A stretch of 64,000 bases of DNA from Candidatus Adlerbacteria bacterium (GTDB lineage: Bacteria; Patescibacteriota; Minisyncoccia; Phycocordibacterales; SBAW01), in assembly GCA_037135035.1 (NCBI GenBank), contig JBAXLB010000002.1, positions 4,993 to 68,992 on the forward strand, given 5' to 3'. Within the stretch, counting starts at the first letter, position 1; each line of letters begins with the position of its first letter. The translations under genes were made by a program, and so were the position numbers. Below, one piece after another: positions 3,566-47,504 of the stretch. The notes beneath the pieces were generated by a model. It did not search any database and was not told where the DNA came from. It worked only from the letters and a program-made list of their open reading frames with translations.

Positions 3566-5098
3566 ATGTTTACCAAAACCGTACTGGCACTTGCCGTGAT
3601 GGCAGGGTTCTGCCTCGGCGCCGCACTTGGCTATTGGCTACGCCTGGTCCTGCTGCGCGCTCGTAAAAACTCGCTCGAAATCGAAGTCCAAAAGATAGTA
3701 CTCGACGCACAAGTAGAAGCAAAGACAGTTGTAGAAAAAGCCGAAGCCGCCGCCAAAGAAAAAGCCGCCGCCGTTGAAAGCGAATTAAAGGAAAAAGAGG
3801 AAAAAATTACCCGCGCCGAAGACCGGGTTTTTAAACGTGAAGAACAGGTAGACAAAAAACAGACCGAACTCGACAGCGAAGTTGCTGCGGTCAAAAGCCG
3901 TATCGAAGAGGTAAAAACTATTAAAGAAAAGGCCGAAGGCTTGCTTGTGGAACGCTCCAGTGAACTTGCAAAAGTAGCAGGTTTAAGCAAAGAGCAGGCT
4001 CTTACCCAGCTCCATGCCGAACTCGAGCGCGAGGCTGGCGACGACCTTATGATGCGCGTCGCCAAACTTGAACGCGACGGTATGGAAAAGTTAGAGCGCC
4101 GCGCGAAGGAAATTTTGACAACCGCCATACACCGCCTGGGCAACTCGGTTGCATCAGACACTATGGCCACCGCCGTGACCATTCCCAACGACGAAATTAA
4201 AGGCAAAATTATAGGCAAAGAAGGCCGCAACATTAAAGCGTTTGAACGCGCAACAGGTGTGGAAGTGATAATCGACGACACGCCAGGCTCTATTGTCCTC
4301 TCCTCGTTCGACCCAATGCGCCGTGCCGTTGCCCGCATGGCACTCGAAAACTTGATACTCGACGGCCGCATCCAACCTGCAAAAATCGAAGAGGCTGCCG
4401 ACAAAGCCCGCGCCGACATAGGCAAAATAATTAAAGAAAAAGCCGACGCTGCATGTTTTGAAACGGGTGTCCTTAACTTGGACCCACGTTTGATGACCGT
4501 GCTTGGCCGCCTCCACTTCCGCACCTCTTTTGGGCAGTCGGTGCTCCAGCACTCGACAGAAATGGCGCACATCGCCGGCATGATAGCCGAAGAGCTTGGC
4601 GCAAACGTGCAGGTTGCAAAGGCAGGTGCCTTGCTGCACGACATCGGCAAAGCCCTGGACCACGAAGTACAGGGCACCCATGTGGAAATCGGCCGCCGCA
4701 TATTGCAAAAGTTTGGTGTGTCGGAAGAGGTGGTGAAGGCAATGCAGGCCCACCACGAAGAATATCCGTACGAAACGGTGGAGAGCATCATTGTGCAGGT
4801 TGCCGACGCGATTTCCGGCGGCCGCCCAGGTGCGCGCCGCGACAGTGTCGAAAATTACTTGAAGCGCCTTGGTGATATTGAAGAAATCGCCAACTCGTTT
4901 GCAGGAGTCGAGAAATGTTACGCAATTTCTGCAGGCCGCGAAGTGCGTGTCTTTGTAAAACCCGAAGAGATGACCGACTTCCAGTCACGCGAACTTGCCC
5001 GCAATATTGCTAACCGCATCGAAAACGAATTGAAATATCCTGGCGAAGTAAAAGTAAACGTCATCCGCGAAAGTCGTTCGATAGAGTTTGCTCGCTAA
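3566..5098 (+). CDS. rny: ribonuclease Y
   Basis: 510 aa. N-terminal TM helix, long coiled-coil region, KH domain (GKIIGKEGRNIKAFERATGVEVIIDD) and HD domain (LLHDIGKA). Confidence 0.92.
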   Translation: MFTKTVLALAVMAGFCLGAALGYWLRLVLLRARKNSLEIEVQKIVLDAQVEAKTVVEKAEAAAKEKAAAVESELKEKEEKITRAEDRVFKREEQVDKKQTELDSEVAAVKSRIEEVKTIKEKAEGLLVERSSELAKVAGLSKEQALTQLHAELEREAGDDLMMRVAKLERDGMEKLERRAKEILTTAIHRLGNSVASDTMATAVTIPNDEIKGKIIGKEGRNIKAFERATGVEVIIDDTPGSIVLSSFDPMRRAVARMALENLILDGRIQPAKIEEAADKARADIGKIIKEKADAACFETGVLNLDPRLMTVLGRLHFRTSFGQSVLQHSTEMAHIAGMIAEELGANVQVAKAGALLHDIGKALDHEVQGTHVEIGRRILQKFGVSEEVVKAMQAHHEEYPYETVESIIVQVADAISGGRPGARRDSVENYLKRLGDIEEIANSFAGVEKCYAISAGREVRVFVKPEEMTDFQSRELARNIANRIENELKYPGEVKVNVIRESRSIEFAR

Positions 5099-5116: not shown

Positions 5117-5146
5117 AACCGCCTCGGACAACCGGGGCGGTTTTTA
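5117..5146. terminator. intrinsic terminator after rny (CCGCCTCGG-acaa-CCGGGGCGG + TTTTT), bidirectional
   Basis: 9-bp GC stem plus a T5 run directly after the rny stop. It overlaps the stop of the convergent ORF 5144..5467. Confidence 0.8.
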
Positions 5147-5467
5147 CTTAAAAAAACTGCGCTGCCATGGCGATAGACTCGCCAAAAAACGAGCGTATTT
5201 TTGAGACCTTTCATGTGCTTCATTTGAACGCTTACCGTACATATTGAGCTTAAGATCCTCAATACGTTTAATAAGGGATGGCGTAGAATGTTCTTCTGTC
5301 AGAATTATTTCTGAGAAGTGAGTCGACCATCCACTATAGAAAACTAACTTGTGTTTTCCGCGAGAATGATTCGGCGTAATGAGGAATTGGAAGTAGATAG
5401 GTCCTCCAAATTTGTCCGCAAGCAGATCCTCTTTCTTCTTTCTCTTAGAACGTTTTGCCTTTTTCAT
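5144..5467 (-). CDS. small basic hypothetical protein
   Basis: 107 aa. Lys-rich N-terminus. SD GAGGAG 7 nt before the ATG. Its leader is the conserved element E1. Confidence 0.5.
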   Translation of the reverse strand: MKKAKRSKRKKKEDLLADKFGGPIYFQFLITPNHSRGKHKLVFYSGWSTHFSEIILTEEHSTPSLIKRIEDLKLNMYGKRSNEAHERSQKYARFLASLSPWQRSFFK

Positions 5468-5481
5468 TTGAGTCTCCTCTC

Positions 5482-5552
5482 AAAAATCTATCTCGATGAA
5501 TCTTCGAATTTCTTCAAAGACTCAATAGAGAGGAGAAGTTGTAAGCTTCTCC
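5482..5552. repeat. conserved leader element E1 (52-bp conserved block ending CTCAATAGAGAGG plus a 7-bp-stem hairpin)
   Basis: About 90% identical over ~52 bp to 40937..40990 (E3). A diverged copy is at 5809..5860 (E2). Each is followed by a hairpin of different sequence but equal structure. Confidence 0.7.
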
Positions 5553-5564
5553 TACACACATCTC

Positions 5565-5786
5565 CTACTGAGAGGCCCAGTCCAGCACGACCTTTGCTAC
5601 GACGTGCCTCACAACCCTCAACGTCTCGCGACCAACGCGCGGGGTTCGGAGGATCTCCGCTTCGGTCACGACGCGATTCAGGACATCGCCTACCGTCACC
5701 CACCCTTCCCTTTCGATAACTTCGAGTTGATAGCGATGATGATCCGGCCAATAATCACGAAGTTTTTGGTTCATTACATCGCTCAT
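5565..5786 (-). CDS. small hypothetical protein, GC-rich islet
   Basis: 73 aa. SD AGGAGA. High GC. Element E2 is upstream and the E1 hairpin is downstream, where it acts as a terminator-like structure. Confidence 0.5.
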   Translation of the reverse strand: MSDVMNQKLRDYWPDHHRYQLEVIEREGWVTVGDVLNRVVTEAEILRTPRVGRETLRVVRHVVAKVVLDWASQ

Positions 5787-5808
5787 TGAAGTCTCCTGTG
5801 GTTATTTG

Positions 5809-5878
5809 AAAGATCTATTCTCTCTTGAACACCCGACTGTCCAGATTCTCAATAGAGAGGAAGAAATTTCTTTCTTCC
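5809..5878. repeat. conserved leader element E2 (diverged copy plus GGAAGAAA-tttc-TTTCTTCC hairpin)
   Basis: Shares AAAGATCT...TTCTC and the CTCAATAGAGAGG core with E1 and E3. Its hairpin covaries. Confidence 0.6.
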
Positions 5879-5888
5879 CTTAGTGTTT

Positions 5889-6140
5889 TTAGTCGTTATA
5901 CCTCGGGAGCATTTCATTTAGTTCCTCAATGGAGATCACCTGATAGGTAGTTTCCTTCGTCGACGACCCCCCTTCCGACGACTTGTCTTCTTTTTTGGGA
6001 GATAGTGTCCCCAGCACCTTGTTCGCTTCCTCCTGGGAACCATGGAAGGAATGCACTTCCTTCCGGCTCCAGGCATGGAATTTGCCATACGACTTTGAAC
6101 AACCCTTGTTCTCAGTAATAATGATGTACTGAACCTGCAT
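5889..6140 (-). CDS. small hypothetical protein, GC-rich islet
   Basis: 83 aa. Strong SD (AGGAGGG). Own TTGACA-N16-TACTCT promoter-like boxes and two 5'-UTR hairpins. Confidence 0.5.
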   Translation of the reverse strand: MQVQYIIITENKGCSKSYGKFHAWSRKEVHSFHGSQEEANKVLGTLSPKKEDKSSEGGSSTKETTYQVISIEELNEMLPRYND

Positions 6141-6342
6141 GATGCCCTCCTAAGGCTGTAAGGCCGTTGGCCTGTTTTGATGAACTCTGTACTGACAACA
6201 GAGTACCAGATTTGGTAGATTTGTCAATTTAATGGGCTATATAATTAGCTCAAATAGCTTTATTTAAGAACGTATTTTGTACATATTGGTAAAAATCATC
6301 AAAAATATTGACTAAAATGGACATTTAGTATACGCTAGAGAT

Positions 6343-7077
6343 ATGCAGTTAAAAGAAGCGTTGCAAACTATAGGGCTCTCCGAGAAGCAAACCGCTGTCT
6401 ATTTGGCACTGTTGCAGCTTGGCCGCGGCTCGGCATATTCTATTGCTCTCAAAAGCGGGCTCAAAAAACCCACCACCTACGTTATTTTGGACGAGCTGAT
6501 AGAGAAAGGCTTAGTCTCTCGTGTGCCGCGCGTCAAAAAACAGCTCTATGTCCCCCACTCGCCACAAGAGGTCTTTGCCACAGCTGAAGAAAAGTTTGCA
6601 CTAGCAAAAGCAACACTGCCCGAGCTGCTCGCGCTAACCAAAGGCACCGACACAAAAGTAAATACTCTTTACTTTGAAGGTGTCGAGGGTATCAAACAGC
6701 TGATGGAATATCGCGCTAAAGAAATGCACGGCAAAGAGATGGTCGGGTTCTATGCCACGGATGTTAACGCCGACCCAGAGCTAGTGCGATATTTTAAGGA
6801 CGAATGGGCAGACAAAATGTTGAAGTTACATATCCCTGTGCGTATGATAGCTCCCGAACATGCGTCCCTCAAAGACTATCGCGATGCAGACGCAAAATAT
6901 AACAGGCAGCTAAAAACCGTTCCGTATGCAGAGTATTCGTCCGAAGTTGCTATAGACGTGCTTGGCGACATTGTGCGCATACAAGATTATAAAAATTTGC
7001 AGGGAGTTGCGATAGAAAATGCCGACGTTGCAAAAACAGTGCGACAGATTTTTGAATTGGTGTGGAAAAAATTGTAA
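6343..7077 (+). CDS. TrmB-family HTH transcriptional regulator (paralog 2)
   Basis: 244 aa. wHTH LGLSEKQTAVYLALLQLGRGSAYSIALKSGLKKPTTYVILDELIEKGL. Close paralog of 41749..42483. Confidence 0.75.
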   Translation: MQLKEALQTIGLSEKQTAVYLALLQLGRGSAYSIALKSGLKKPTTYVILDELIEKGLVSRVPRVKKQLYVPHSPQEVFATAEEKFALAKATLPELLALTKGTDTKVNTLYFEGVEGIKQLMEYRAKEMHGKEMVGFYATDVNADPELVRYFKDEWADKMLKLHIPVRMIAPEHASLKDYRDADAKYNRQLKTVPYAEYSSEVAIDVLGDIVRIQDYKNLQGVAIENADVAKTVRQIFELVWKKL

Positions 7078-7214: not shown

Positions 7215-7736
7215 ATGGGCAATGAGACTATAAAAATTCATAACGTAGCTTTTATTGACGGACAAAACCTCCATTTAGGCACAAAAGAATGTGGCTGGGT
7301 GATAAATCATAAAAGATTTAGAGTATACCTTTCAGAAAAATATAATATTCAGGAAGCCTATTACTATTTAGGTTTCGTCTCAGACGGAGAGCAGGATCTA
7401 TACGACAAACTCCAAAAAGCCGGTTTTATCCTTTCGTTTAGAGACCATTCAGCTGCGCTTAAGGGAAATAAAAAAGGCAATGTTGACTGCGATATTGTAT
7501 TTGGTGCCATGAAAAAACTAGCAGAAAACGAGCCCTTCGATACAGTTTTTATAGTGTCTGGGGATGGCGATTATAAAAGAATGGTCGACTATTTAGTTAA
7601 AAAAGGAAAGTTCGGCAAAATGTTATTTCCAAACAGGAAGTTCGCCTCTTCTCTATATCACAGCTTAGGAGGAGAATACTTCGACTATCTCGAATCAGCT
7701 GATGTCAAAGCCAAGATAGCCCATACCCATAAATGA
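7215..7736 (+). CDS. NYN-domain (LabA-like, PIN-fold) protein, paralog 1
   Basis: 173 aa. FIDGQNL at the N-terminus and the SGDGDY acidic motif typical of NYN/LabA. Confidence 0.7.
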   Translation: MGNETIKIHNVAFIDGQNLHLGTKECGWVINHKRFRVYLSEKYNIQEAYYYLGFVSDGEQDLYDKLQKAGFILSFRDHSAALKGNKKGNVDCDIVFGAMKKLAENEPFDTVFIVSGDGDYKRMVDYLVKKGKFGKMLFPNRKFASSLYHSLGGEYFDYLESADVKAKIAHTHK

Positions 7737-8096: not shown

Positions 8097-8369
8097 ATGA
8101 ACAAACAAGATATAGCAGAAAAAGTGCACGGAGTCCTTGGCGGAACCAAGGCCGATGCAGAACGTGCCGTTGAAACTATGATAGACACCATCGTTGCCTC
8201 TTTAAAGAAAGGCGAAGATGTTTCTATCGCAGGTTTGGGCATCTTTAAGACAAAAATGCGTGCAGCACGCACCGCCCGCAACCCGCGCACTGGCGCAACC
8301 GTACAGGTTGCCGCAATGACAGTGCCTAAGTTCCAGGCTGCAAAAGCACTCAAAGAAGCAGTAAAATAG
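8097..8369 (+). CDS. hup: DNA-binding protein HU
   Basis: 90 aa. HU/IHF fold signature (GLGIFKTKMRAARTARNPRTGATVQV). Strong terminator downstream. Confidence 0.92.
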   Translation: MNKQDIAEKVHGVLGGTKADAERAVETMIDTIVASLKKGEDVSIAGLGIFKTKMRAARTARNPRTGATVQVAAMTVPKFQAAKALKEAVK

Positions 8370-8519: not shown

Positions 8520-9194
8520 GTGTATCCATACACGCCCCAGCTAGCCGCAAGGTCCGCTGGGGTTGTTCGTGCCCAAATCTGCTACAATAGCGGACACGTG
8601 GAGACAATTTTACTCATAGACGGAGAGAATTTTAAGGGCAAAATCCGCTCTGTGTTCAAAGACACAAAGAAGGACAAACCCGTGTGGCACGAATACGACT
8701 TTAAGGGTCTGCTTGATAAAGTGTTGAAAGATATTCCTCTCGATAGAAAGGTCTTTTACTTTGCTCGTATTAAAGAACACGATGATAGCAAAGAAAAATC
8801 AAAACAGTTAGTTGAGGAGCAACGCCAACTCAAAACCCATCTGGAGAAGCAGGGTTTTGAGGTTATTTTGAGCGGTCGAGTACGTGGGCAAATGGAAGAA
8901 GGTCAAAGCGGAAAAAAGGTACTTGTATTCAAAGAAAAAGGCGTTGATGTAAAAATCGCCGTCGACATGGTGAGCTTGGCGTGCGATAAGAAAGTTAAAG
9001 AAATAATACTTGGGAGCTCCGATTCAGACTTGCAACCCGCTATCAAAGAAGTTCGCGACAGAAAAATAAGCTGCGTATATCTCGGCTTCGAGGCACAGCC
9101 AAATAAAGGTCTTTCGTTTACCACCAGTAGAACCCTTTTAATACGCAACTCGGAGATTTTGGAATTTGAGAAAACACAGCAGACTCTCATTTAA
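8520..9194 (+). CDS. NYN-domain (LabA-like) protein, paralog 2
   Basis: 224-aa ORF. NYN motifs LLIDGENF and GSSDSD. The true start may be the GTG near 8598 (VETILLIDGENF). The stop codon abuts the hup 3'-end duplicate. Confidence 0.65.
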   Translation: MYPYTPQLAARSAGVVRAQICYNSGHVETILLIDGENFKGKIRSVFKDTKKDKPVWHEYDFKGLLDKVLKDIPLDRKVFYFARIKEHDDSKEKSKQLVEEQRQLKTHLEKQGFEVILSGRVRGQMEEGQSGKKVLVFKEKGVDVKIAVDMVSLACDKKVKEIILGSSDSDLQPAIKEVRDRKISCVYLGFEAQPNKGLSFTTSRTLLIRNSEILEFEKTQQTLI

Positions 9195-24396: not shown

Positions 24397-25161
24397 TTAC
24401 TTACTCGAAAGGTTCCAGAGTACTTCAAAAAACCCTTTGTAGCCCTCTGCAACTTTTTTGTTTGTAAAGGTAAAGGCAACAACCGGGTTGCCATAAATCA
24501 TAAAATTGACCTTGTCGCCATAGATGTCAGTATCTACTTCAGGTGCCGACTGGGGGAGGACGCGATATTCGAAAAAAGGTCGTGTTTGAGCCATTATTTT
24601 AAGGTAGTTGGGGTTACCCGACATACTTATGTACCGCAGCCGTATCTTTTTTTCAATACGAATCCGTTCATATTCGTTCAGTTCTCCTCCAAAAATTTCG
24701 ACATATTTGTCCCCGTTGCCTGCCAAAATATCTATAGAGCTGCCGTCGGGCATACCTTCGAGCAGAGCAAACTCGTGGGCAACAAACGCGGTGTCGCCCT
24801 GGAAGACCTCGAAGCTCTGTTCGTGCTTGCCGGCAAACTGCTCTTTTAGCTGGCGCACCACTGCCTGGGCCGAAAGCTTTTTTTCTTCCACAAGCGAAAG
24901 GATGCGCTCGGGCGAGCCAGCGCTAAACTTCTTCCGGCCGTTTTGCACCACGTGTTTTGCAAGCCCCAACTCCTCCAACCGTTCAAGTGCCTGGTACACA
25001 AACTGCCCGTGCAGCCCGCTGGCGCGGATAAGGTTGCTGGTGCCTGTGTCTTGGCGGGGAAGTAAGGCTAAATAGACCCGCGCTTCCTTGTCGGTGAGCC
25101 CTAAAGCCTCCAAATTGCTTAAAAGCTCCTTATTTGCAATATCATCAATATTTTTTGACAT
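24397..25161 (-). CDS. TrmB-family HTH transcriptional regulator (paralog 3)
   Basis: 254 aa. wHTH LGLTDKEARVYLALLPRQDTGTSNLIRASGLHGQFVYQALERLEELGL. Confidence 0.72.
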   Translation of the reverse strand: MSKNIDDIANKELLSNLEALGLTDKEARVYLALLPRQDTGTSNLIRASGLHGQFVYQALERLEELGLAKHVVQNGRKKFSAGSPERILSLVEEKKLSAQAVVRQLKEQFAGKHEQSFEVFQGDTAFVAHEFALLEGMPDGSSIDILAGNGDKYVEIFGGELNEYERIRIEKKIRLRYISMSGNPNYLKIMAQTRPFFEYRVLPQSAPEVDTDIYGDKVNFMIYGNPVVAFTFTNKKVAEGYKGFFEVLWNLSSK

Positions 25162-25307
25162 CTATACCAAAACTCTAGCATTCACAGTGCTTTATTGTCA
25201 ATTTTTTATCATCAGTATTTCTTGACATTACTGTTTTATGGTGCTATTATGTATGTAGTTCAGTCAGTACATCGAAAATAACCGCCCCATGGGGCAGAGG
25301 GATAAAA

Positions 25308-26018
25308 ATGAAGACCAATTATGGGAATTTTGCTGACCGGTACCAGTTCTACACGAGCGACGACAACCTTAATGACCCAGAGCTGCGGCTTGGCAGAATG
25401 CCGGCACTTGCAGCCCTTGGAGATACACAAGGGAAGACTGTGCTCGACTTTGGCTGTGGGCCTGCGACCAACAGCCCGAGGCTTTTGGATGCCGGGGCGC
25501 GTGTTATTGGCCTCGATGTTGACCCTATCGTCATCGAGAAGGCGCGTCAGGTTGACCCGCGCAGCGATTATTGGGTTTGGCAGGGGTTGCTCGTCAAGAA
25601 ACTTGGGTGGATTCCGATAGACTGTATTCTCATGAGCTTCTCGTTCTGTGTCATTCCCGACCGGGAAATACGCTACATTCTGCGCGATATGCGGGCAATA
25701 CTGCACAAGGGTGGCAAGCTCGTCATTGTTGAACCCAACCAAGAGAAAGCGCACGGTATTCGGTACACAAGCCTGCACTATCACAAAAAGGAAGGGGTCC
25801 GAACAGGTGATTTCGTCGACGTGACGCTCGGTTCTGGTGAGAATGCTATCCTCTTAACTGACGATATCTACCGCCGCCACGACGACTATCGCCGACTTTT
25901 GGAGGAAGCTGGTTTCACAATCGAAAGAATGGAGGAGCCGTTGCCGCCCAAAGATTGGGGCGAGGGTCGGGAACTGCTCGAGAAATATCCGCCCTTTGTG
26001 CTCATCGTGGCTATATAG
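25308..26018 (+). CDS. class I SAM-dependent methyltransferase
   Basis: 236 aa. Motif I VLDFGCGPATNS, acidic motif II GLDVD. Confidence 0.7.
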   Translation: MKTNYGNFADRYQFYTSDDNLNDPELRLGRMPALAALGDTQGKTVLDFGCGPATNSPRLLDAGARVIGLDVDPIVIEKARQVDPRSDYWVWQGLLVKKLGWIPIDCILMSFSFCVIPDREIRYILRDMRAILHKGGKLVIVEPNQEKAHGIRYTSLHYHKKEGVRTGDFVDVTLGSGENAILLTDDIYRRHDDYRRLLEEAGFTIERMEEPLPPKDWGEGRELLEKYPPFVLIVAI

Positions 26019-30473: not shown

Positions 30474-31382
30474 TTATTTCCTGCCCGTGCCGTGGAATTT
30501 TTTGTGGACTTCGTGCAGGTGTTTGTCTGTCACGTGGGTGTAGACCTGTGTGGTTGCGATGTTCGCATGACCAAGGAGTGCTTGTACGGAACGCAAGTCG
30601 GCGCCGTTTTGGAGCAGGTCGGTTGCAAAGGAGTGGCGGATAACGTGCGGCGTAACTTTGCGCGTAATGCCCGCTTTTACCGAATATTTTTTAACGAGAC
30701 GTTCTACCGAGCGGGGAGTGAGCCGCAGCTCTTTGGCATTTTTTGAACCTTTGCCCATTTGTATAAAGAGCGCCTCGTCGACATCGCCACGTTTGTCTAA
30801 ATATTCTTTTATCGTGCGCTTGGCGGCAGGGGAGAGAAACACAACACGAATTTTTTCGCCTTTGCCACGGATAGAAAACTCGTCGCGCGTTAAGTCTAGG
30901 TCGCGGTTAAGCGAACATAGTTCCGACACACGCAACCCAGTGGAAAAAAATAATTCTAAAATCGCCCGGTCGCGCAACTCTGCAAGTCCCGAACCTTTCG
31001 GGCCCGCCATCAAACGCTCCAGCTCATCGGACGTAATAAGATCCAAGTCGCGACTACCAACTTTTGCCAGTTCAATGCGCTCTGGATTCAATGACTCTAT
31101 ATCGCGCTTGCGCAAAAACTTTAAAAACGCACGGAGCGAGATCATGTAGTAGTTTTGTGTTTTGTGCTTCATCGTACCCGCAGTACCTGCTTGGCGGTTA
31201 AGATGCAAGCGGAATTCGCGCACGGCGCTTTCGGTCAGCTTAGAAGGGGAGGTTATTTTACTGTGTGCTAAAAAACGCGAAAGGTACCGGTCGTAATTTT
31301 CGACCGTTTTAATACTCCGGCCTTTTTCAATTTCTAAATATTCTAAAAACTGAGTTTTGAGATCTTTCAAATCTGCCTTCAT
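30474..31382 (-). CDS. tyrosine site-specific recombinase XerC/XerD family
   Basis: 302 aa. C-terminal catalytic box HVIRHSFATDLLQNGADLRSVQALLGHANIATTQVYTHV with the R...HxxR...Y layout. N-terminal SAM-like domain. Confidence 0.88.
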   Translation of the reverse strand: MKADLKDLKTQFLEYLEIEKGRSIKTVENYDRYLSRFLAHSKITSPSKLTESAVREFRLHLNRQAGTAGTMKHKTQNYYMISLRAFLKFLRKRDIESLNPERIELAKVGSRDLDLITSDELERLMAGPKGSGLAELRDRAILELFFSTGLRVSELCSLNRDLDLTRDEFSIRGKGEKIRVVFLSPAAKRTIKEYLDKRGDVDEALFIQMGKGSKNAKELRLTPRSVERLVKKYSVKAGITRKVTPHVIRHSFATDLLQNGADLRSVQALLGHANIATTQVYTHVTDKHLHEVHKKFHGTGRK

Positions 31383-38935: not shown

Positions 38936-40025
38936 AATCCTCCTACCAAAAAAAGACGGCCCGTCCGTCGACTCGGCGCAGCGCATAAACGCGGGCGCAC
39001 TTTTGGCGCAAGAACTGGGAGCAACGCTAAGTACGCCGCCGTTGGAGCAAGTTCCGGTTGCGGAGCCGAAGATCGACGCAGAGGAATTTGCTCCAATAGC
39101 AACACCAGAAGATACTGGCGTGCGTAATTTACAGACATATCAAGGCGACGTGGAACGTGTCGTGCAAGGAAAGCATGTTTCAGTTGTTTCCATTGCCGCA
39201 GCAGAGGCAGAGAGACGCAGCAAGAAGAGCCTCGAAATACACGAACTCATAGAGGCCACCCAGCCAAAACACACACTCCGTACTGTCGTACTTATTGCAG
39301 CGAGTGTGTTGTTGGTTATTGCCGCAGGGATACTGGTGCACTACGTGTATGTATTTAACGCACCGCTCCCGGCAGGGTCACCAAATGCTGCACCGTTTAT
39401 TGCCGTCGACGGCACAACCCTCGTGTCGATGTCTCAAAACACAACACCAAGCGCGGTAATGAACCAGCTCGTACAGGCAAAAAAATCTGTAAACCTCTCT
39501 CTTGGGCTGATTGCGCAATTGTATATACAAACTGCTGCCACAAGCAGCGACTCTGCACCGCAGTATGTCGACGCTCCGACACTCCTTTCCGCACTTGCGC
39601 CCGACATACCGGGTAACTTACTGCGTGCGGTGCAGCCGGTGTACTTGCTTGGTGTACATTCGTTTGGACTGAACCAGCCGTTTTTGATTATTAAAGTCGA
39701 CTCATACGAACAAGCGTACGCAGGAATGTTAGCGTGGGAAACAAGCATGAAGGCCGACCTCTCGCCACTGTTTGCGTACACTCCAGCCCCTGGTGTGCGC
39801 GCGCAGCAAAGTGCTGGGTCGGCACAATTTTTGCAGACTAACTTTTTTGACGTAATTGTCGAAAACCACAACGCGCGGATACTTACAAGCGCGGACGGGT
39901 CGCTTAATTTCCTCTGGACCTTTCTAGACCGACAGACAATTGTTATAACAACCAACGCTGGCACATTGCGTGAAATTATTTCTCGCTTGTTGCAAGCACC
40001 TATATTGCCGCTACCAGGAAAATAA
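38880..40025 (+). CDS. single-pass membrane protein of unknown function
   Basis: About 380 aa. One TM helix (TVVLIAASVLLVIAAGILVHYVYVF). The ORF start overlaps the pnp 3' end, so the true start is uncertain. Confidence 0.45.
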   Translation: MPPNKQDQHSGAGEIDLNKILLPKKDGPSVDSAQRINAGALLAQELGATLSTPPLEQVPVAEPKIDAEEFAPIATPEDTGVRNLQTYQGDVERVVQGKHVSVVSIAAAEAERRSKKSLEIHELIEATQPKHTLRTVVLIAASVLLVIAAGILVHYVYVFNAPLPAGSPNAAPFIAVDGTTLVSMSQNTTPSAVMNQLVQAKKSVNLSLGLIAQLYIQTAATSSDSAPQYVDAPTLLSALAPDIPGNLLRAVQPVYLLGVHSFGLNQPFLIIKVDSYEQAYAGMLAWETSMKADLSPLFAYTPAPGVRAQQSAGSAQFLQTNFFDVIVENHNARILTSADGSLNFLWTFLDRQTIVITTNAGTLREIISRLLQAPILPLPGK

Positions 40026-40067: not shown

Positions 40068-40439
40068 ATGATACACGAAACTACACACTTTAAAAAAGTA
40101 TTAACCGAGCAGCTCCACACAGTAGAAGAAGAGTTAAAAAACTTGGGGTGGAAGAACGACGCAGGGGAGTGGGACGCTGCAGTAAAAGACATCGACCAAA
40201 GCGCCACAGAGTCGGACGAAGTTGCCGACCGTATTGAAGAGTTTGAGGAAAACCAAACAGAAATTGCCGAGATACAGGTGCACTGGAATGACATCAAACG
40301 TGCACTCGCAAAAATAGAAGAAGGTACCTACGGCATCTGCGAAATTTGTGGGGAAGCAGTTGAAGAAGACCGCTTGGAAGTAAACCCTTCGGCACGCACC
40401 TGCAAAGTGCACATCGACGAAGAAAAAAATCTTTCGTAG
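40068..40439 (+). CDS. DksA/TraR-family C4 zinc-finger protein
   Basis: 123 aa. C-terminal CEICGEAV...RLEVNPSARTCKVH 4-Cys finger. N-terminal acidic coiled coil. Confidence 0.75.
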   Translation: MIHETTHFKKVLTEQLHTVEEELKNLGWKNDAGEWDAAVKDIDQSATESDEVADRIEEFEENQTEIAEIQVHWNDIKRALAKIEEGTYGICEICGEAVEEDRLEVNPSARTCKVHIDEEKNLS

Positions 40440-40471
40440 AATCTGCTTGGTAAATTAAATATAAAAAATTT

Positions 40472-40504
40472 AAGCGCCCAGTATTTCTACTGAGCGCTTT
40501 TTCG
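40472..40504 (+). terminator. intrinsic terminator after the dksA-like gene
   Basis: AGCGCCCAGTA-tttc-TACTGAGCGCT followed by TTTTT. Confidence 0.75.
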
Positions 40505-40659
40505 TTCTCCTCCTCTAAGTTTTGATTTTGCGGAGTTTGTACACGGGCACAATTTCGTACCCGAGCTCCTTCAGGGACCGCTCGATCTGGGACTTGGCGC
40601 GATGCCACGATCTCCAGTAAATGAGCGCCTCGGAATAACCGGGGCGGTTTTTGGATTTT

Positions 40660-40902
40660 TCAGTCGAGCAACAAATCCCGCATCTTGCGAACAGGTTTGT
40701 TCCTCTCGAGGATGTGCGTGCCCGGATTCTTTTTCATCCTGTCGAAGATCCGCCGACACGCGGAGATGACGCTTTTGCCCCCGCGAGGCACGTTCTTCTT
40801 CAATTCTTCGAGAAGCCTTTCGGCTTTCTCTGGATCCTCCCAGCTCCACGCTGCTGCGAGGAAATCAACCGCAATCGCGTACATCTTATCGTCAAGCTTC
40901 AT
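40660..40902 (-). CDS. small hypothetical protein in a GC-rich island
   Basis: 80 aa from the ATG at 40902 (SD GGGAGA). Element E3 lies ~45 nt upstream. A second open frame continues downstream without a start, which may be a frameshifted remnant. Confidence 0.45.
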   Translation of the reverse strand: MKLDDKMYAIAVDFLAAAWSWEDPEKAERLLEELKKNVPRGGKSVISACRRIFDRMKKNPGTHILERNKPVRKMRDLLLD

Positions 40903-40936
40903 GACTTTCTCCCGTGCCTTGTGAGGCGTCTGTTTT

Positions 40937-41010
40937 AAAAGATCTCTTCTCGATGAACCTTCGAATTTCTTCAAAGACTCAATAGAGAGGGTGAATGTGT
41001 AGATTCACCC
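40937..41010. repeat. conserved leader element E3 (copy of E1) plus GGGTGAAT-gtgtag-ATTCACCC hairpin. Two further hairpins follow at 41026..41049 and 41053..41068
   Basis: About 90% identity to 5482..5533 over 52 bp. The hairpin sequence is different but structurally equivalent. Confidence 0.7.
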
Positions 41011-41167
41011 CAATGCCTTAAGTTCGATAGAGAAGGGCTTTTCTCTATCTATCGAGACGCCACTCTCGAGGTTGTAGCGTTAGATAGTTGTTGGACTTAT
41101 AACCCCTAATTTAAAAGGATACGCCTTCTGTTGCCAAGCGGGAATCACCCCGCTCCGATCTATGCGA

Positions 41168-41521
41168 CTATGCGGGCAGGCCCGTCACTTCAACCAATCG
41201 GCGGTGGAAGGGGAAGAGCTTGCTTTCGCACCTCGGACAGCTAACCAAGCCGGGGAACTCCTTTTTGAAGTTCTCACCGTCAGGGAGACTAACCGAGCCC
41301 AGGAACGAGCCGCGGGCATTTTTGATGAACTTCACGTACATCAAGTTGCCATCGTACTCGCTGCTGACGCAACGCAACCAGGTGGTTTCCCTGTTTTCGC
41401 ACGCATCGTTCATGCATGCAAACAGATACCTAGTTTCCCAGAGACGGCCTTCGCCGCCCGGGATGCGCACGTCATACTGGTAGTCGTAAGACTCGGTAGC
41501 GTAGTTGTAACAGTCGCGCAT
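41168..41521 (-). CDS. hypothetical Cys-rich (zinc-ribbon-like) protein in a GC-rich island
   Basis: 117 aa from the ATG at 41521 (SD CAGGAGAG). CxxC (CPRC) plus scattered Cys/His. High GC. Confidence 0.45.
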   Translation of the reverse strand: MRDCYNYATESYDYQYDVRIPGGEGRLWETRYLFACMNDACENRETTWLRCVSSEYDGNLMYVKFIKNARGSFLGSVSLPDGENFKKEFPGLVSCPRCESKLFPFHRRLVEVTGLPA

Positions 41522-41748
41522 GATGCTCTCCTGTGCCCCTCGGGGCTGATGGTTTGGCAATATTGCCCTTGTTGTGATGATCGTCTACCCAACAGTATAG
41601 GTCATTTTGGGCAGATTGTCAATCTTTATGATTTAATTTATAGTTCGTGTGTATATAAAAAGCTTTATTTATCAACATATTTTGGAGATTTAGCTTCGTT
41701 TATCAAAATTGTTGACTAAATATGTGTTTTGCCCTATACTAGCTAGGT

Positions 41749-42483
41749 ATGAATTACACCGAAGCACTTGGAACTTTGGGGCTGAGCGAAAAGCAGGCGA
41801 GCGTATATTTAGCCTTGGTTGGGCTAGGGGAGTCGTCTGCCTACGCTATTGCCCACAAAGCAGGCCTAAAAACTCCTACTACCTACGTTATTTTGAAGGA
41901 GTTAATCGAGTTAAACATCGTCTACACTATCCCTCGGGCCAAAAAGCAGCTGTTTGTTTCCATGGACCCCAAGCAACTCTTTGCTAAAGCACAGACACGC
42001 TTTGAAGACGCAAAAAGTTTACTGCCGTCTATACTCGCACTTGTTGCTGTGCCTGGAGTGGCACCAGTAACACGCTCGTTCTCGGGGAAGGCTCAACTGT
42101 TGAGTGCATACTTTGAAACACTCGCCGTACCGGACACCACGCTGCGCGGCTGGCTTTCGGAAGGTGCGTGGTCGGAACACGGGCTCGATTTCTTTTTAAA
42201 CACCTACCGGCCGCAGCGCATCAAACAAAACATCTCCAACCAGTTTATTGTCGGCGACACTGCTGTGATGCGCGACTATGCCCAACACGATGCAGGGGTG
42301 CTTAAAGAAACTCGCGTGGACAAAAACTTCGGGCCACAGACCGACCTCCTTATATATGGTGGCAATAAAATAATCATCGCTTCGTTTTATGAAGAAATGG
42401 GAGTTATTGTCGAAAGCCAAAAAGTGCACGACTTACTCGCAGGGATATTCGAGGCGCATTGGGCCGCACTCGAGGGCAAATAA
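41749..42483 (+). CDS. TrmB-family HTH transcriptional regulator (paralog 5)
   Basis: 244 aa. wHTH LGLSEKQASVYLALVGLGESSAYAIAHKAGLKTPTTYVILKELIELNI. Closest paralog is 6343..7077. Confidence 0.75.
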   Translation: MNYTEALGTLGLSEKQASVYLALVGLGESSAYAIAHKAGLKTPTTYVILKELIELNIVYTIPRAKKQLFVSMDPKQLFAKAQTRFEDAKSLLPSILALVAVPGVAPVTRSFSGKAQLLSAYFETLAVPDTTLRGWLSEGAWSEHGLDFFLNTYRPQRIKQNISNQFIVGDTAVMRDYAQHDAGVLKETRVDKNFGPQTDLLIYGGNKIIIASFYEEMGVIVESQKVHDLLAGIFEAHWAALEGK

Positions 42484-45554: not shown

Positions 45555-47504
45555 ATGAATGGGGAAAGCGGTTTGAACGATGCCCAAAAAGAGGCAGTGG
45601 AGACTACAGAGGGTCCGCTACTTGTCATCGCAGGTGCCGGAGCAGGCAAAACACGAGTTATCGCCCACCGGATTTTAGAAATTGTACAAAAAGGTGTGGC
45701 CCCAGAGCAGATTTTGGCTATCACGTTTACCAACAAGGCGGCAACGGAGATGCGCGAGCGGGTGGTTGGCCTTTTGAGGAAGTTTGAGGGGCCTACGCAA
45801 AACCCTCTGCGTCGATCTTCGGCTCCGCAGCCGGGTTTTGCTTCGGCCAGCGCACCGTTTGTTTCTACCTTCCATTCGCTTGGTCTGCAGATAATTAAAG
45901 AAAATCATGTCTTGCTGGGGTACAAACGCACTCCAACCATATACGACCGCGCAGACTCTATGCGCGAAGTAAAAGCAGCGCTGAAGACACTCGGCAACGA
46001 AGAAATTGAACCACGTACAGCACTTGGCATTATTTCCAAACAAAAAGGGCAGGGACGCGAGGCAGCCAGTTTTGCAGAAAAGGCCGAGATGCCCGTCGAC
46101 CGGGTTGTGGGGCAGGTGTGGCTTGCGTACGACGCAGCACTTAAAAAAGACGGCGCTGTAGACTTTGACGACCTGCTTGTAAAAGCGATGCGCCTGCTGC
46201 AAAACAACGAAGAAGTACGCCTTTCCTACCAAAAGCGCTGGCGCTATGTACATATAGACGAATACCAAGACACTAACTCGGTGCAGGCAAAAATGGCCGA
46301 GATGCTTGTGGGCCCCGAGAAAAACATTTGTGCCGTGGGCGATATCGACCAAACTATCTACGGCTGGCGCGGTGCAGAAATTGCCAACATACTTTCGTTC
46401 GAAAAAAAATATCCCGGGGCAAAAATTATTCTGTTGGAAGAAAACTACCGCTCGACCAAAAATATTTTGGCCGCTGCAAACGAGATAATTGCAAAAAACA
46501 CCAACCGCCGCGAAAAAAACTTGTACACGAAAAATACTGATGGCGAGCAACTTGGCCTATACCAAGCGTTTGACGAAACTGACGAGGCAGGCTTTATCGT
46601 ACGAAAAATAAAAGAGCATATACGCGATGGCAGGCAGCCAAGAGACTTTTGTGTGCTGTACCGGGCAAACTTTCAGTCGCGCGCTATTGAAGAACAGCTC
46701 TTAAACTCTGGGCTCGAATACCAACTGCTTGGAACAAAATTTTATGAACGCAAAGAAATAAAAGACGTACTTTCGTTTATCAAAGCGGCGATACACGGAA
46801 CACCGGGGGACTTGGCGCGCATTGCAAACGTGCCACCGCGCGGTATTGGCAAAGTGACGCTGCTTAAAATCTTAAGCGGGCAAGAAGATGCGCTCGGCGG
46901 CGCAGTTGGAGACAAAGTAAAAAACTTGCGCTTCCTACTTTCAAAAATACATATAAAAGCAACAGAGATGATACCGTCTGAATTTTTGAAATTTGTCATT
47001 GTCGAGTCGGGGTTAGAGCGTATGTTCCGCGAAGATAAAATAGAAGGGCCAGAGCGCCTAGAAAACTTGCGCGAACTTGTGTCGCTCGCGGTACGTTACG
47101 ACGCGTTTGGCCCGGGAGAGGGGTTGGACCAACTACTTGAAAACGCAGCGTTGCAGAGCGACCAAGACGAGCTGAAAGAAAACGCAAACGCCGTGCGACT
47201 TATGACCGTGCATGCATCAAAAGGTCTTGAATTCCCGTTTGTGTTTATCACCGGACTTGAAGAAGGGCTCTTTCCATACGAGCGTATGGGCGAAGAAAAC
47301 TCCGACAAAGAAGAAGAGCGCCGTTTGATGTACGTGGCCATTACGCGTGCCGAGAAAAAATTATTTCTCACCTTTGCGTCGTACCGAACAGTCTTTGGTT
47401 CTAAAAACGCAACCATCCCGTCGCAATTTCTCTCTGACATATCAAACCACCTGGTCAGTTGGGAAACCCCCGAGCGTATTGGAAGAACAATATATTTGGA
47501 TTAG
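45555..47504 (+). CDS. pcrA: UvrD/PcrA-family ATP-dependent DNA helicase
   Basis: 649 aa. LNDAQKEAVE, Walker A AGAGAGKT, DEYQDTN, and helicase motifs through VHASKGLEF. Confidence 0.9.
   Translation: MNGESGLNDAQKEAVETTEGPLLVIAGAGAGKTRVIAHRILEIVQKGVAPEQILAITFTNKAATEMRERVVGLLRKFEGPTQNPLRRSSAPQPGFASASAPFVSTFHSLGLQIIKENHVLLGYKRTPTIYDRADSMREVKAALKTLGNEEIEPRTALGIISKQKGQGREAASFAEKAEMPVDRVVGQVWLAYDAALKKDGAVDFDDLLVKAMRLLQNNEEVRLSYQKRWRYVHIDEYQDTNSVQAKMAEMLVGPEKNICAVGDIDQTIYGWRGAEIANILSFEKKYPGAKIILLEENYRSTKNILAAANEIIAKNTNRREKNLYTKNTDGEQLGLYQAFDETDEAGFIVRKIKEHIRDGRQPRDFCVLYRANFQSRAIEEQLLNSGLEYQLLGTKFYERKEIKDVLSFIKAAIHGTPGDLARIANVPPRGIGKVTLLKILSGQEDALGGAVGDKVKNLRFLLSKIHIKATEMIPSEFLKFVIVESGLERMFREDKIEGPERLENLRELVSLAVRYDAFGPGEGLDQLLENAALQSDQDELKENANAVRLMTVHASKGLEFPFVFITGLEEGLFPYERMGEENSDKEEERRLMYVAITRAEKKLFLTFASYRTVFGSKNATIPSQFLSDISNHLVSWETPERIGRTIYLD

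Follow-up and report, generated by a model that had tools for sequence, protein, structure and literature searches.

Hairpins that lie between cistrons and act in the processing or stabilisation of messages include the RNase III sites of phage T7, the repetitive extragenic palindromes and bacterial interspersed mosaic elements (REP/BIME), and RNase Y sites that are guided by downstream structure. Other structured elements with comparable features are the put RNA of HK022, which is composed of two adjacent stem-loops, and the attC sites of integrons, which are around 57-141 nt in length. It is known that put and EAR RNAs cause antitermination without the involvement of protein factors (PMC11658703), and gene shuffling through the conserved promoter early stem-loop (PeSL) motifs of T4-type phages has been demonstrated (PMC2839356, PMC4122927). 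Here we describe a family of tandem-hairpin elements, termed E elements, found between the small genes of variable operons in a 64,000 nt stretch ('the window') of the genome of a Candidatus Adlerbacteria bacterium, and compare them with these systems; of the explanations considered, a cis-acting mRNA element fits the data best.

Three copies are present in the window, all within two operons of small open reading frames (ORFs) that are divergent from genes encoding TrmB-like proteins. E3, on the minus strand at 40938-41011, had been reported in a first-pass annotation as the third copy of a leader element, around 90% identical to E1 over 52 bp and with the same layout of hairpin, core, spacer, Shine-Dalgarno (SD) sequence and ATG as the array at 5.5 kb. 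Both statements are borne out: 40948-40990 is 98% identical to 5491-5533 of E1 over 43 nt, whilst BLASTN aligns the two elements with 92.6% identity over 54 columns (40937-40990). This likeness stays above background when properly aligned, as a degenerate pattern built from the copies matches only E1, E2 and E3 in the 64 kb and nothing in shuffled sequence, and a covariance model, R1, scores E3 at 81.7 bits, E1 at 78 bits and E2 at 58.4 bits, with no further copies in the window. E1 (5468-5552, minus strand, between ORF73 and ORF107) and E2 (5787-5878, minus strand, between ORF83 and ORF73) are both short forms, the latter with a more divergent upper stem.

Scans of genome and metagenome collections, along with look-ups of the relatives of TrmB2, the TrmB-like protein encoded beside E3, brought the total to 24 distinct copies, found among Ca. 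Adlerbacteria relatives and in metagenomes. Five pattern matches were rejected as chance occurrences inside unrelated genes, two from the genome collection (L001 and L003) and three from the metagenomes (L012, L013 and L021); the former pair represent two of the three matches returned by the scan of the genome collection with the first pattern, and lie in ordinary Bacteroidota and Bdellovibrio-type genes. No match to the element was found in viral contigs, phage records or plasmid records, nor was any relevant family found in Rfam at either gathering or permissive thresholds. The element is a previously undescribed and uncatalogued family.

All 24 copies are on the strand of the flanking ORFs, between the stop codon of one and the SD sequence and start codon of the next. 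Hairpin 1 has a stem of 7-14 bp, variable in sequence and always opened by GG and closed by CC; in 23 copies, its 3' end directly touches a core, CCTCTCTATTGAG, which is invariant over 13 nt and forms the 5' arm of hairpin 2. This second hairpin, 38-49 nt long, has TCTC/GAGA at its base, followed by a UAU x UC internal loop and then an upper stem of 12 bp; as RNA, its invariant base reads CCUCUCUAUUGAG...YUCAUYGAGA, and the terminal loop is often GAAA, GAGA, UUCG or CUUG. Most copies then have a U-rich tail (AGAUCUUU) with the motif AGATCTTT or GTTCTTT, and the SD sequence and start codon are found 13-81 nt past hairpin 2. In the short forms, the upstream stop codon is approximately 5-15 nt ahead of hairpin 1. 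A resemblance to CRISPR repeats, based on a hairpin followed by ATTGA(A/G), was also considered and dropped, as the sequences of hairpin 1 differ between copies; no cas genes were seen in the window, which was not systematically annotated for them.

In E3, both sequence reading and folding identify the isosteric hairpin previously described at 40989-41010 as hairpin 1 (GGGTGAAT-ctacac-ATTCACCC, minus strand), which touches the core with a spacer of zero. Hairpin 2 (40948-40988, minus strand), delimited from the alignment of the 24 copies, pair counts, RNAalifold and the single-sequence fold, has the invariant core TCTCTATTGAG as its 5' arm, together with a TCTC/GAGA base, a TAT x TC internal loop, a covarying 12 bp upper stem and a GAAA loop. 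The tail and leader (40903-40947, minus strand) are composed of AGAGATCTTTTAAAAC, a small hairpin and the SD sequence GGGAGAAAG, preceding an ATG at 40902. E3 is a long form, with a 5' extension (41012-41090, minus strand) that is kept in the copies L002c, L004b and L006a1, as judged from alignment and from BLASTN matches of 77-88% identity. Of two additional perfect hairpins previously listed in this extension as separate features, that at 41026-41049 is indeed a perfect 9 bp stem, and forms part of the conserved long form common to four genomes; it ends in a second copy of the core, CTTCTCTATCGAAC, without a hairpin 2. The other, at 41053-41068, was overstated, having a stem of only 4 bp. 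The extension also contains a CGCTAC...GTGGCG stem.

The structure of hairpin 2 is supported by covariation. Over its 16 pairs, 93.2% of cells in the alignment are paired, as against 26-53% when the partners are slid relative to one another; nine pairs have changed on both sides, and the covariation score was reached by none of 500 shuffles. RNAalifold returned the identical fold without the structure being supplied. The cells include 33 G-U combinations and only six A-C, the mean folding energy is -16.9 kcal/mol for the coding strand relative to -13.2 kcal/mol for its complement, and R1 gives scores of 55-82 bits on the coding strand, compared with 24 bits or fewer on the reverse. With compensatory pairs on one strand only, the alignment points to a structured, cis-acting RNA.

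The distribution of elements follows that of the genes: an array of n ORFs has n-1 elements, which are found only between ORFs, the last of which runs into a terminator. A promoter scan of the coding strand found no sigma-70 promoter within E1, E2 or E3, ruling out an internal promoter in the element, and detected a strong one in the control region. Hairpin 1 is followed by UCUCUAUU, in which five of eight nucleotides are U, and was not listed by the terminator scan. The primary 5' untranslated regions (UTRs) divergent from TrmB-like genes contain a (T)TCATCGA(A/G)A box, 13-17 nt past the -10 box, and the 3' arm of hairpin 2 and the sequence downstream of it resemble these primary leaders; in some of them, the GC leader hairpin found downstream of element L004b is present as well. 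In all ten of the arrays with enough flanking sequence (the two in the window, two in L006, and one each in L002, L004, L007, L014, L016 and L018), a TrmB-like gene is divergently oriented from the array. Three TrmB-like modules are arranged in tandem between rny and HU in L006 (3000-8300), where the junction at around 6650-6615 has a reduced element, with a hairpin followed by CTGAG-TAGAGATCTTT and no hairpin 2.

The block containing E3 had originally been described as a GC-rich insertion of about 1 kb, wedged between a terminator-bounded dksA-like gene and a TrmB regulator gene. Both of these genes, the terminator and the two flanking minus strand ORFs are present as described; that the block is an insertion beside a bystander TrmB gene is refuted by a syntenic slot in L026 and by the conservation of the surrounding module. 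In L026, the TrmB2 of which is 87% identical to that of the window, the order of genes is PNPase, a 392 aa gene, dksA, a 165 aa minus strand ORF, TrmB2 and comM, matching the window. Nucleotide homology between the two starts at the array promoter (41615), with none across 40425-41614, and the 165 aa ORF is unrelated to the cassette genes of the window. Hence the slot is ancestral, because in L026 the same position between dksA and TrmB2 holds an unrelated ORF, and only the coding content is foreign and variable. No target site duplication was found at the flanks of either the block or the elements. The block is better described as a variable slot in a conserved, TrmB-linked module than as an insertion: the TrmB gene, divergent promoter region, 5' UTR, elements and distal terminator constitute one conserved module, found twice in the window with arrays and E elements, once with a single gene, and also in every relative examined.

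The description of the block as GC-rich likewise stands only in part. The bulk GC content is at most modestly raised and not clearly atypical, at 0.46-0.56 in 300 nt segments relative to a mean of 0.477 for the window, whilst the GC content of third codon positions (GC3) is clearly elevated, at 0.75 in ORF117 and 0.70 in ORF80, as against 0.47-0.56 in housekeeping genes; ORF107, in the other array (locus 1), has a low value of 0.39. A frame 0 coding signal is retained by all five cassette genes in the window, with atypical codons.

L004 has a TrmB2 89% identical to that of the window and a control region around 80% identical over 241 nt (around 88% by eye across the promoter and 5' UTR). Homology to the window stops at the last base of the ATG, beyond which different ORFs are found with three elements between them. 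No homologue of any of the five window cassettes is found in the related arrays, despite the TrmB proteins being 80-89% identical; certain cassette families do recur at different positions among arrays, and cassette GC3 is heterogeneous. The orthologues of TrmB2 adjoin rny in L006, L007 and the P0009 contig, and other genes in L004. The terminator at 40445-40516 in the window is 81% identical to that on the rny side of the L006 array, which suggests that the whole module has moved together. Independent metagenome assemblies break in or at elements or arrays: L023 ends at window position 40961, L025 starts at 5090, and L031 ends around 61 nt past ORF73, which by arithmetic is inside E1. Such breaks are as repeat or strain heterogeneity would produce.

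On the minus strand, locus 2 (the array containing E3) consists in order of the control region (41748-41522), the 5' UTR, ORF117, about 157 nt of structured non-coding sequence, E3, ORF80, a T-run hairpin (40652-40626), a frame lacking a start codon (40625-40518) and the dksA terminator. The divergent control region (41522-41748) is conserved, and contains two promoters and the 5' UTR. The array promoter, of sigma-70 type, has the near-consensus sequence TTGACA-17-TATACT (41622 to 41594, minus strand), and that of TrmB2 is at 41712-41740 on the plus strand; the array 5' UTR has a TCATCAC box, then a leader hairpin, GCCCCGAGGGGC (41535-41546), and then an SD sequence. The first cassette gene, ORF117 (41168-41521, minus strand), encodes a cysteine-rich orphan protein, and the second, ORF80 (40660-40902, minus strand), is likewise an orphan; both are singletons among 5.8 billion protein clusters, with only self matches. 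Searches of Pfam, PHROGs, PADLOC and NCBIfam with the nine cassette proteins gave no family match, and an exhaustive phmmer search with ORF117 found only compositional matches to surface-repeat proteins. The single-sequence AlphaFold2 (AF2) model of ORF117 is unusable, having a predicted local distance difference test score (pLDDT) of 45. ORF80 is annotated publicly as a protein of 104 aa (P0031), corresponding to a TTG start at 40974, within hairpin 2 of E3; a start at 40902, where an ATG is preceded by an SD sequence and gives 80 aa, fits better with the layout of the family.

Twelve nucleotides past the stop codon of ORF117 is a further hairpin, 'hp0' (GGAGCGGGGTGATTCCCGCTTGGCAACAG; 41125-41157, minus strand, 33 nt), the motif of which, GGAGCGGG.TGAT(A)TCC.GCTTGGCAACAGAAG, is 91% identical in L007 (3440-3473) and L016 (3611-3643). 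In these three genomes it directly follows the stop codon of the first ORF, and the three first ORFs are unrelated to one another. At the other end of the locus, the distal hairpin CGCCTCGGAATAACCGGGGCG followed by T5 (40626-40652) is near-identical to the far-end terminator of array 1 at 5118-5146; these terminator-like hairpins, CGCCTCGGA..AACCGGGGCGGTTTTT, mark the far ends of both arrays, although that of locus 2 precedes a truncated gene remnant and is not at the true end of the array. This remnant (40515-40625, minus strand) retains the C terminal 36 codons and stop codon (40517-40515) of a cassette gene resembling ORF86 of L002, with which it shares 48% identity over 27 aa (E value 2e-5) and a nucleotide match of 63%. 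The suggestion that the start-less frame downstream of 40660 represents a decayed gene was therefore correct. Beyond it, the terminator already mentioned is bidirectional and common with dksA, with a stem at 40472-40499.

The paralogous module at locus 1 (5144-7077) has the order rny terminator, ORF107, E1, ORF73, E2, ORF83, control region (6141-6342) and TrmB1, with the three ORFs on the minus strand and TrmB1 (6343-7077) on the plus strand. TrmB1 and TrmB2 are 35% identical as proteins, and the control regions of the two loci 66% identical over 163 nt by BLASTN, or 77% by column identity in a MAFFT alignment. TrmB2 (41749-42483, plus strand), divergent from its array, is a TrmB/TrmBL2-like protein with a winged helix-turn-helix (wHTH) domain and a non-catalytic, phospholipase D (PLD)-like C terminal domain. 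The wHTH domain is of TrmB type (Pfam PF01978, E values from 1e-11 to 1e-13), and the AF2 model (pLDDT 86) matches TrmBL2 (5bpd, E value 7e-14) and TrmB (3qph, 1e-9) over its full length in Foldseek searches; no conserved histidine or lysine residue is present. Because of this match to the TrmBL2/TrmB fold and the lack of a conserved His or Lys, TrmB2 is predicted from its model to be a DNA-binding regulator rather than a recombinase. A third TrmB-like module (24397-26018) has TrmB3 (24397-25161, minus strand) facing a gene for a 236 aa methyltransferase; it has a similar promoter and leader, a single gene and no E element. Its 5' UTR has an ACATCGAAAA box and a leader, CCGCCCCATGGGGCAGAGGGATAAAAATG, that is nearly identical to that following the L004b element in another genome. 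The methyltransferase was considered as a cassette common to this module and L007, and rejected, as the likeness is that of S-adenosylmethionine (SAM) domains only (27% over 117 aa).

Taken together, these observations fit best with a cis-acting mRNA element, because the structure and the excess of G-U pairs are specific to the coding strand, the element is positioned between stop codon and SD sequence, arrays conform to the n-1 rule, there is no internal promoter and no recombinase is linked. Judging from sequence, we estimate a probability of around 0.5 that the E element punctuates the polycistronic mRNAs of small, variable orphan genes in Parcubacteria, acting in processing, stability and leader function, and also supplies homology for the shuffling of cassettes. 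A single promoter of sigma-70 type, located in the control region, would drive the array, and the tandem hairpins would be recognised at their invariant junction or base, such that the transcript might be cut in the tail or at the CC|UCUC junction. The upstream message would then be capped at its 3' end by hairpin 1, alone or together with hairpin 2, and the downstream message would begin with a leader mimicking the primary 5' UTR, including the same UCAUCGA(R)A box. Any gene placed in the slot could in this way be stabilised and translated independently. Being conserved between arrays and between genomes, the scaffold may also represent portable homology through which whole ORFs are swapped by homologous or short-homology recombination; such exchange would yield complete turnover of coding sequence between close relatives.

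Several points weigh against this interpretation. The asymmetry between strands favours RNA, and is not proof of it, since folded single-stranded DNA (ssDNA) tolerates G-T wobble pairs too. The invariance of the 13 nt core, across genomes with TrmB-like neighbours only around 25-35% identical to those of the window, would imply a sequence-specific partner. One array of five ORFs, in L006, has one full and one reduced element, rather than one at each junction. No rearrangement is evident at the population level, with exact-protein look-ups finding locus 1 to be identical in three samples or else leading to short, broken contigs and, in one case, to no record. Nor is the precise replacement of ORFs, from the ATG to around 12 nt from the stop codon, an obvious product of homologous recombination alone, and it is fully explained by neither mRNA punctuation nor an integron-like model.

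The latter model, the main rival, under which hairpin 2 is an attC-like site folded from ssDNA, the TCATCGA(R)A box of the 5' UTR is attI-like and the recombinase, perhaps a single Xer, is encoded elsewhere, appears unlikely; slightly less likely again is the more specific proposal that the arrays are an integrase-unlinked, integron-like capture platform peculiar to the candidate phyla radiation (CPR), with cassettes moved by a housekeeping Xer or some other enzyme. Promoterless orphan ORFs in a single orientation, next to one promoter and to a conserved gene that diverges from them, would be expected of such a platform, as would the complete turnover of cassettes with foreign-looking GC3. Hairpin 2 is imperfect in the manner of an attC hairpin, having an invariant paired base of 4 bp, which would correspond to an R box, an unpaired 3x2 internal loop, a covarying 12 bp stem and a variable loop; the promoter-proximal site has a 3' half-site only, and the long form holds a half-element. 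Types of hairpin 1 and hairpin 2 reassort, placing breakpoints at the two conserved arms, and assemblies break within elements. However, these breakpoints are at both arms and the ATG rather than at a single crossover point, and the ends of the site, TCTCTATTGAG and YTCATYGAGA in the 24 copies, are not RYYYAAC/GTTRRRY. Hairpin 2 is shorter, at 38-49 nt, than the range known for attC sites, its better-folding strand is the coding strand, and the last cassette is without a site, with last ORFs being variable too. An integron integrase is absent from the window, with a score of 130 bits against a model cut-off of 265; the sole tyrosine recombinase detected there is a 302 aa XerC/D-type protein (30474-31382, 242 bits), and neither the gene tables of the array loci nor tblastn revealed a recombinase beside any array. 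The XerC/D-type protein also passes the cut-off for archaeal XerA (236 bits, threshold 220).

A different cis-acting RNA role, as a processive antiterminator of the put/EAR kind allowing read-through of the cassette hairpins, or as a device for translational coupling or repression, is about as improbable as the CPR-specific platform. It shares with punctuation the evidence of structure, strand and position, and the two directly adjacent stem-loops resemble those of put RNA. In favour of a translational device, pairing is possible between the pyrimidine tract CUUCUCCUCUCU and an SD sequence; direct reading of E1 shows its SD region, GAGAGGAGA, to be exactly complementary to UCUCCUCUC at the junction of the hairpins. 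This complementarity is inconsistent across copies, though, and absent in E3. As regards antitermination, the element is not similar in sequence to put or EAR, Rfam returns nothing, and an antiterminator is usually required once per operon rather than at each junction. Much less probable is that the TrmB-like protein binds the inverted repeat TCTC.A.TGAG...CTCA..GAGA in double-stranded DNA, as an operator acting as a roadblock or silencer along the array, even given the linkage of a TrmB-like gene to all ten informative arrays and the broad DNA binding of TrmBL2-type proteins (title of PDB entry 5bpd). A site of this type needs neither covariation across a 22 nt spacer nor an excess of G-U pairs on one strand; the motif is missing from the control regions, the expected binding place of an autoregulator, and single-gene TrmB modules are without the element. 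The most remote of the explanations is that a selfish miniature palindromic repeat, akin to a miniature inverted-repeat transposable element (MITE) or REP, has accumulated by chance in intergenic spaces. The element is indeed a short palindrome with several copies per genome, but there are only three in 64 kb, all of which have the same orientation and lie within TrmB-linked arrays; they have no terminal inverted repeats with target site duplication, their position from stop codon to SD sequence is fixed, and no viral, phage or plasmid sequence matches them.

The genomes of the CPR, or Patescibacteria, are very small, and how these bacteria regulate their genes and acquire accessory ones is poorly understood; literature searches on integrons or attC sites in the CPR, on TrmB in Parcubacteria, and on small proteins or intergenic hairpins in Patescibacteria yielded no relevant work. 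The design seen here is a recurring one, in which a TrmB/TrmBL2-like regulator lies beside an expression scaffold, the non-coding parts of which are better conserved than the genes, and orphan genes are completely turned over, ORF by ORF, between close relatives. Should the element be an RNA processing and leader module, the array would be a natural "plug-and-play" expression cassette; should it be a recombination site, it would represent a new gene capture system, and a capture platform would give symbionts with tiny genomes a dedicated means of sampling orphan genes, with a TrmBL2-like silencer or regulator in control. In either case, model R1 gives a handle on this variable gene pool in metagenomes.

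Three other arrangements were observed in the window. The final 63 nt of HU (8097-8369), at 8280-8342, are repeated with 95% identity at 9194-9256, following a 224 aa NYN-domain ORF (8520-9194), such that it looks as if the NYN gene has been inserted at the 3' end of HU with duplication of the target; the arrangement is the same in the independent assembly L025, and a second NYN gene is at 7215-7736. At 10278-12623, an ORF of the nitroreductase family (Pfam) is followed by a 510 aa ORF read as YcaO-like, and these may be a candidate pair for the maturation of an azoline-type ribosomally synthesised and post-translationally modified peptide (RiPP). Finally, a 46 nt inverted repeat, 87% complementary, has arms 6.7 kb apart at 39046-39091 and 45797-45842, one of which is in the 394 aa ORF adjoining dksA; it may reflect paralogous genes in opposite orientation.

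In comparison with known systems, the regulator of these modules is like archaeal TrmB and TrmBL2 (3qph and 5bpd) in its wHTH domain (PF01978) and PLD-like C terminal domain, with a fold match over the full length. However, TrmB2 is bacterial, from the CPR, and only around 14-19% identical to these proteins, and there are several paralogues per genome here, each heading a variable array of small genes. The arrays resemble integron attC arrays and clusters of attC sites lacking integrases (CALIN) in their same-orientation, promoterless orphan cassettes driven from one end, whereas the E element has an extra hairpin, hairpin 1, directly abutting hairpin 2. Put and EAR RNAs are similar in being cis-acting structured RNAs in operon transcripts, whilst E is repeated at each junction. 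Like intercistronic stabiliser hairpins, E elements lie between cistrons, and would determine where mRNA segments begin and end and how stable they are; they differ in being a distinct sequence family with a 13 nt invariant core, which is restricted to a single class of operon and persists as the genes on either side are replaced. With the PeSLs of T4-type phages they have in common the layout of stop codon, stem-loop, conserved core, SD sequence and start codon, the flanking small orphan genes, the hypervariable regions and the replacement breakpoints within motifs. PeSLs, however, hold a sigma-70 promoter and a terminator, making each gene its own transcription unit, whereas the E element has no promoter, possesses a second, strand-specifically covarying hairpin, and is found in a cellular CPR genome, linked to a TrmB-like gene.

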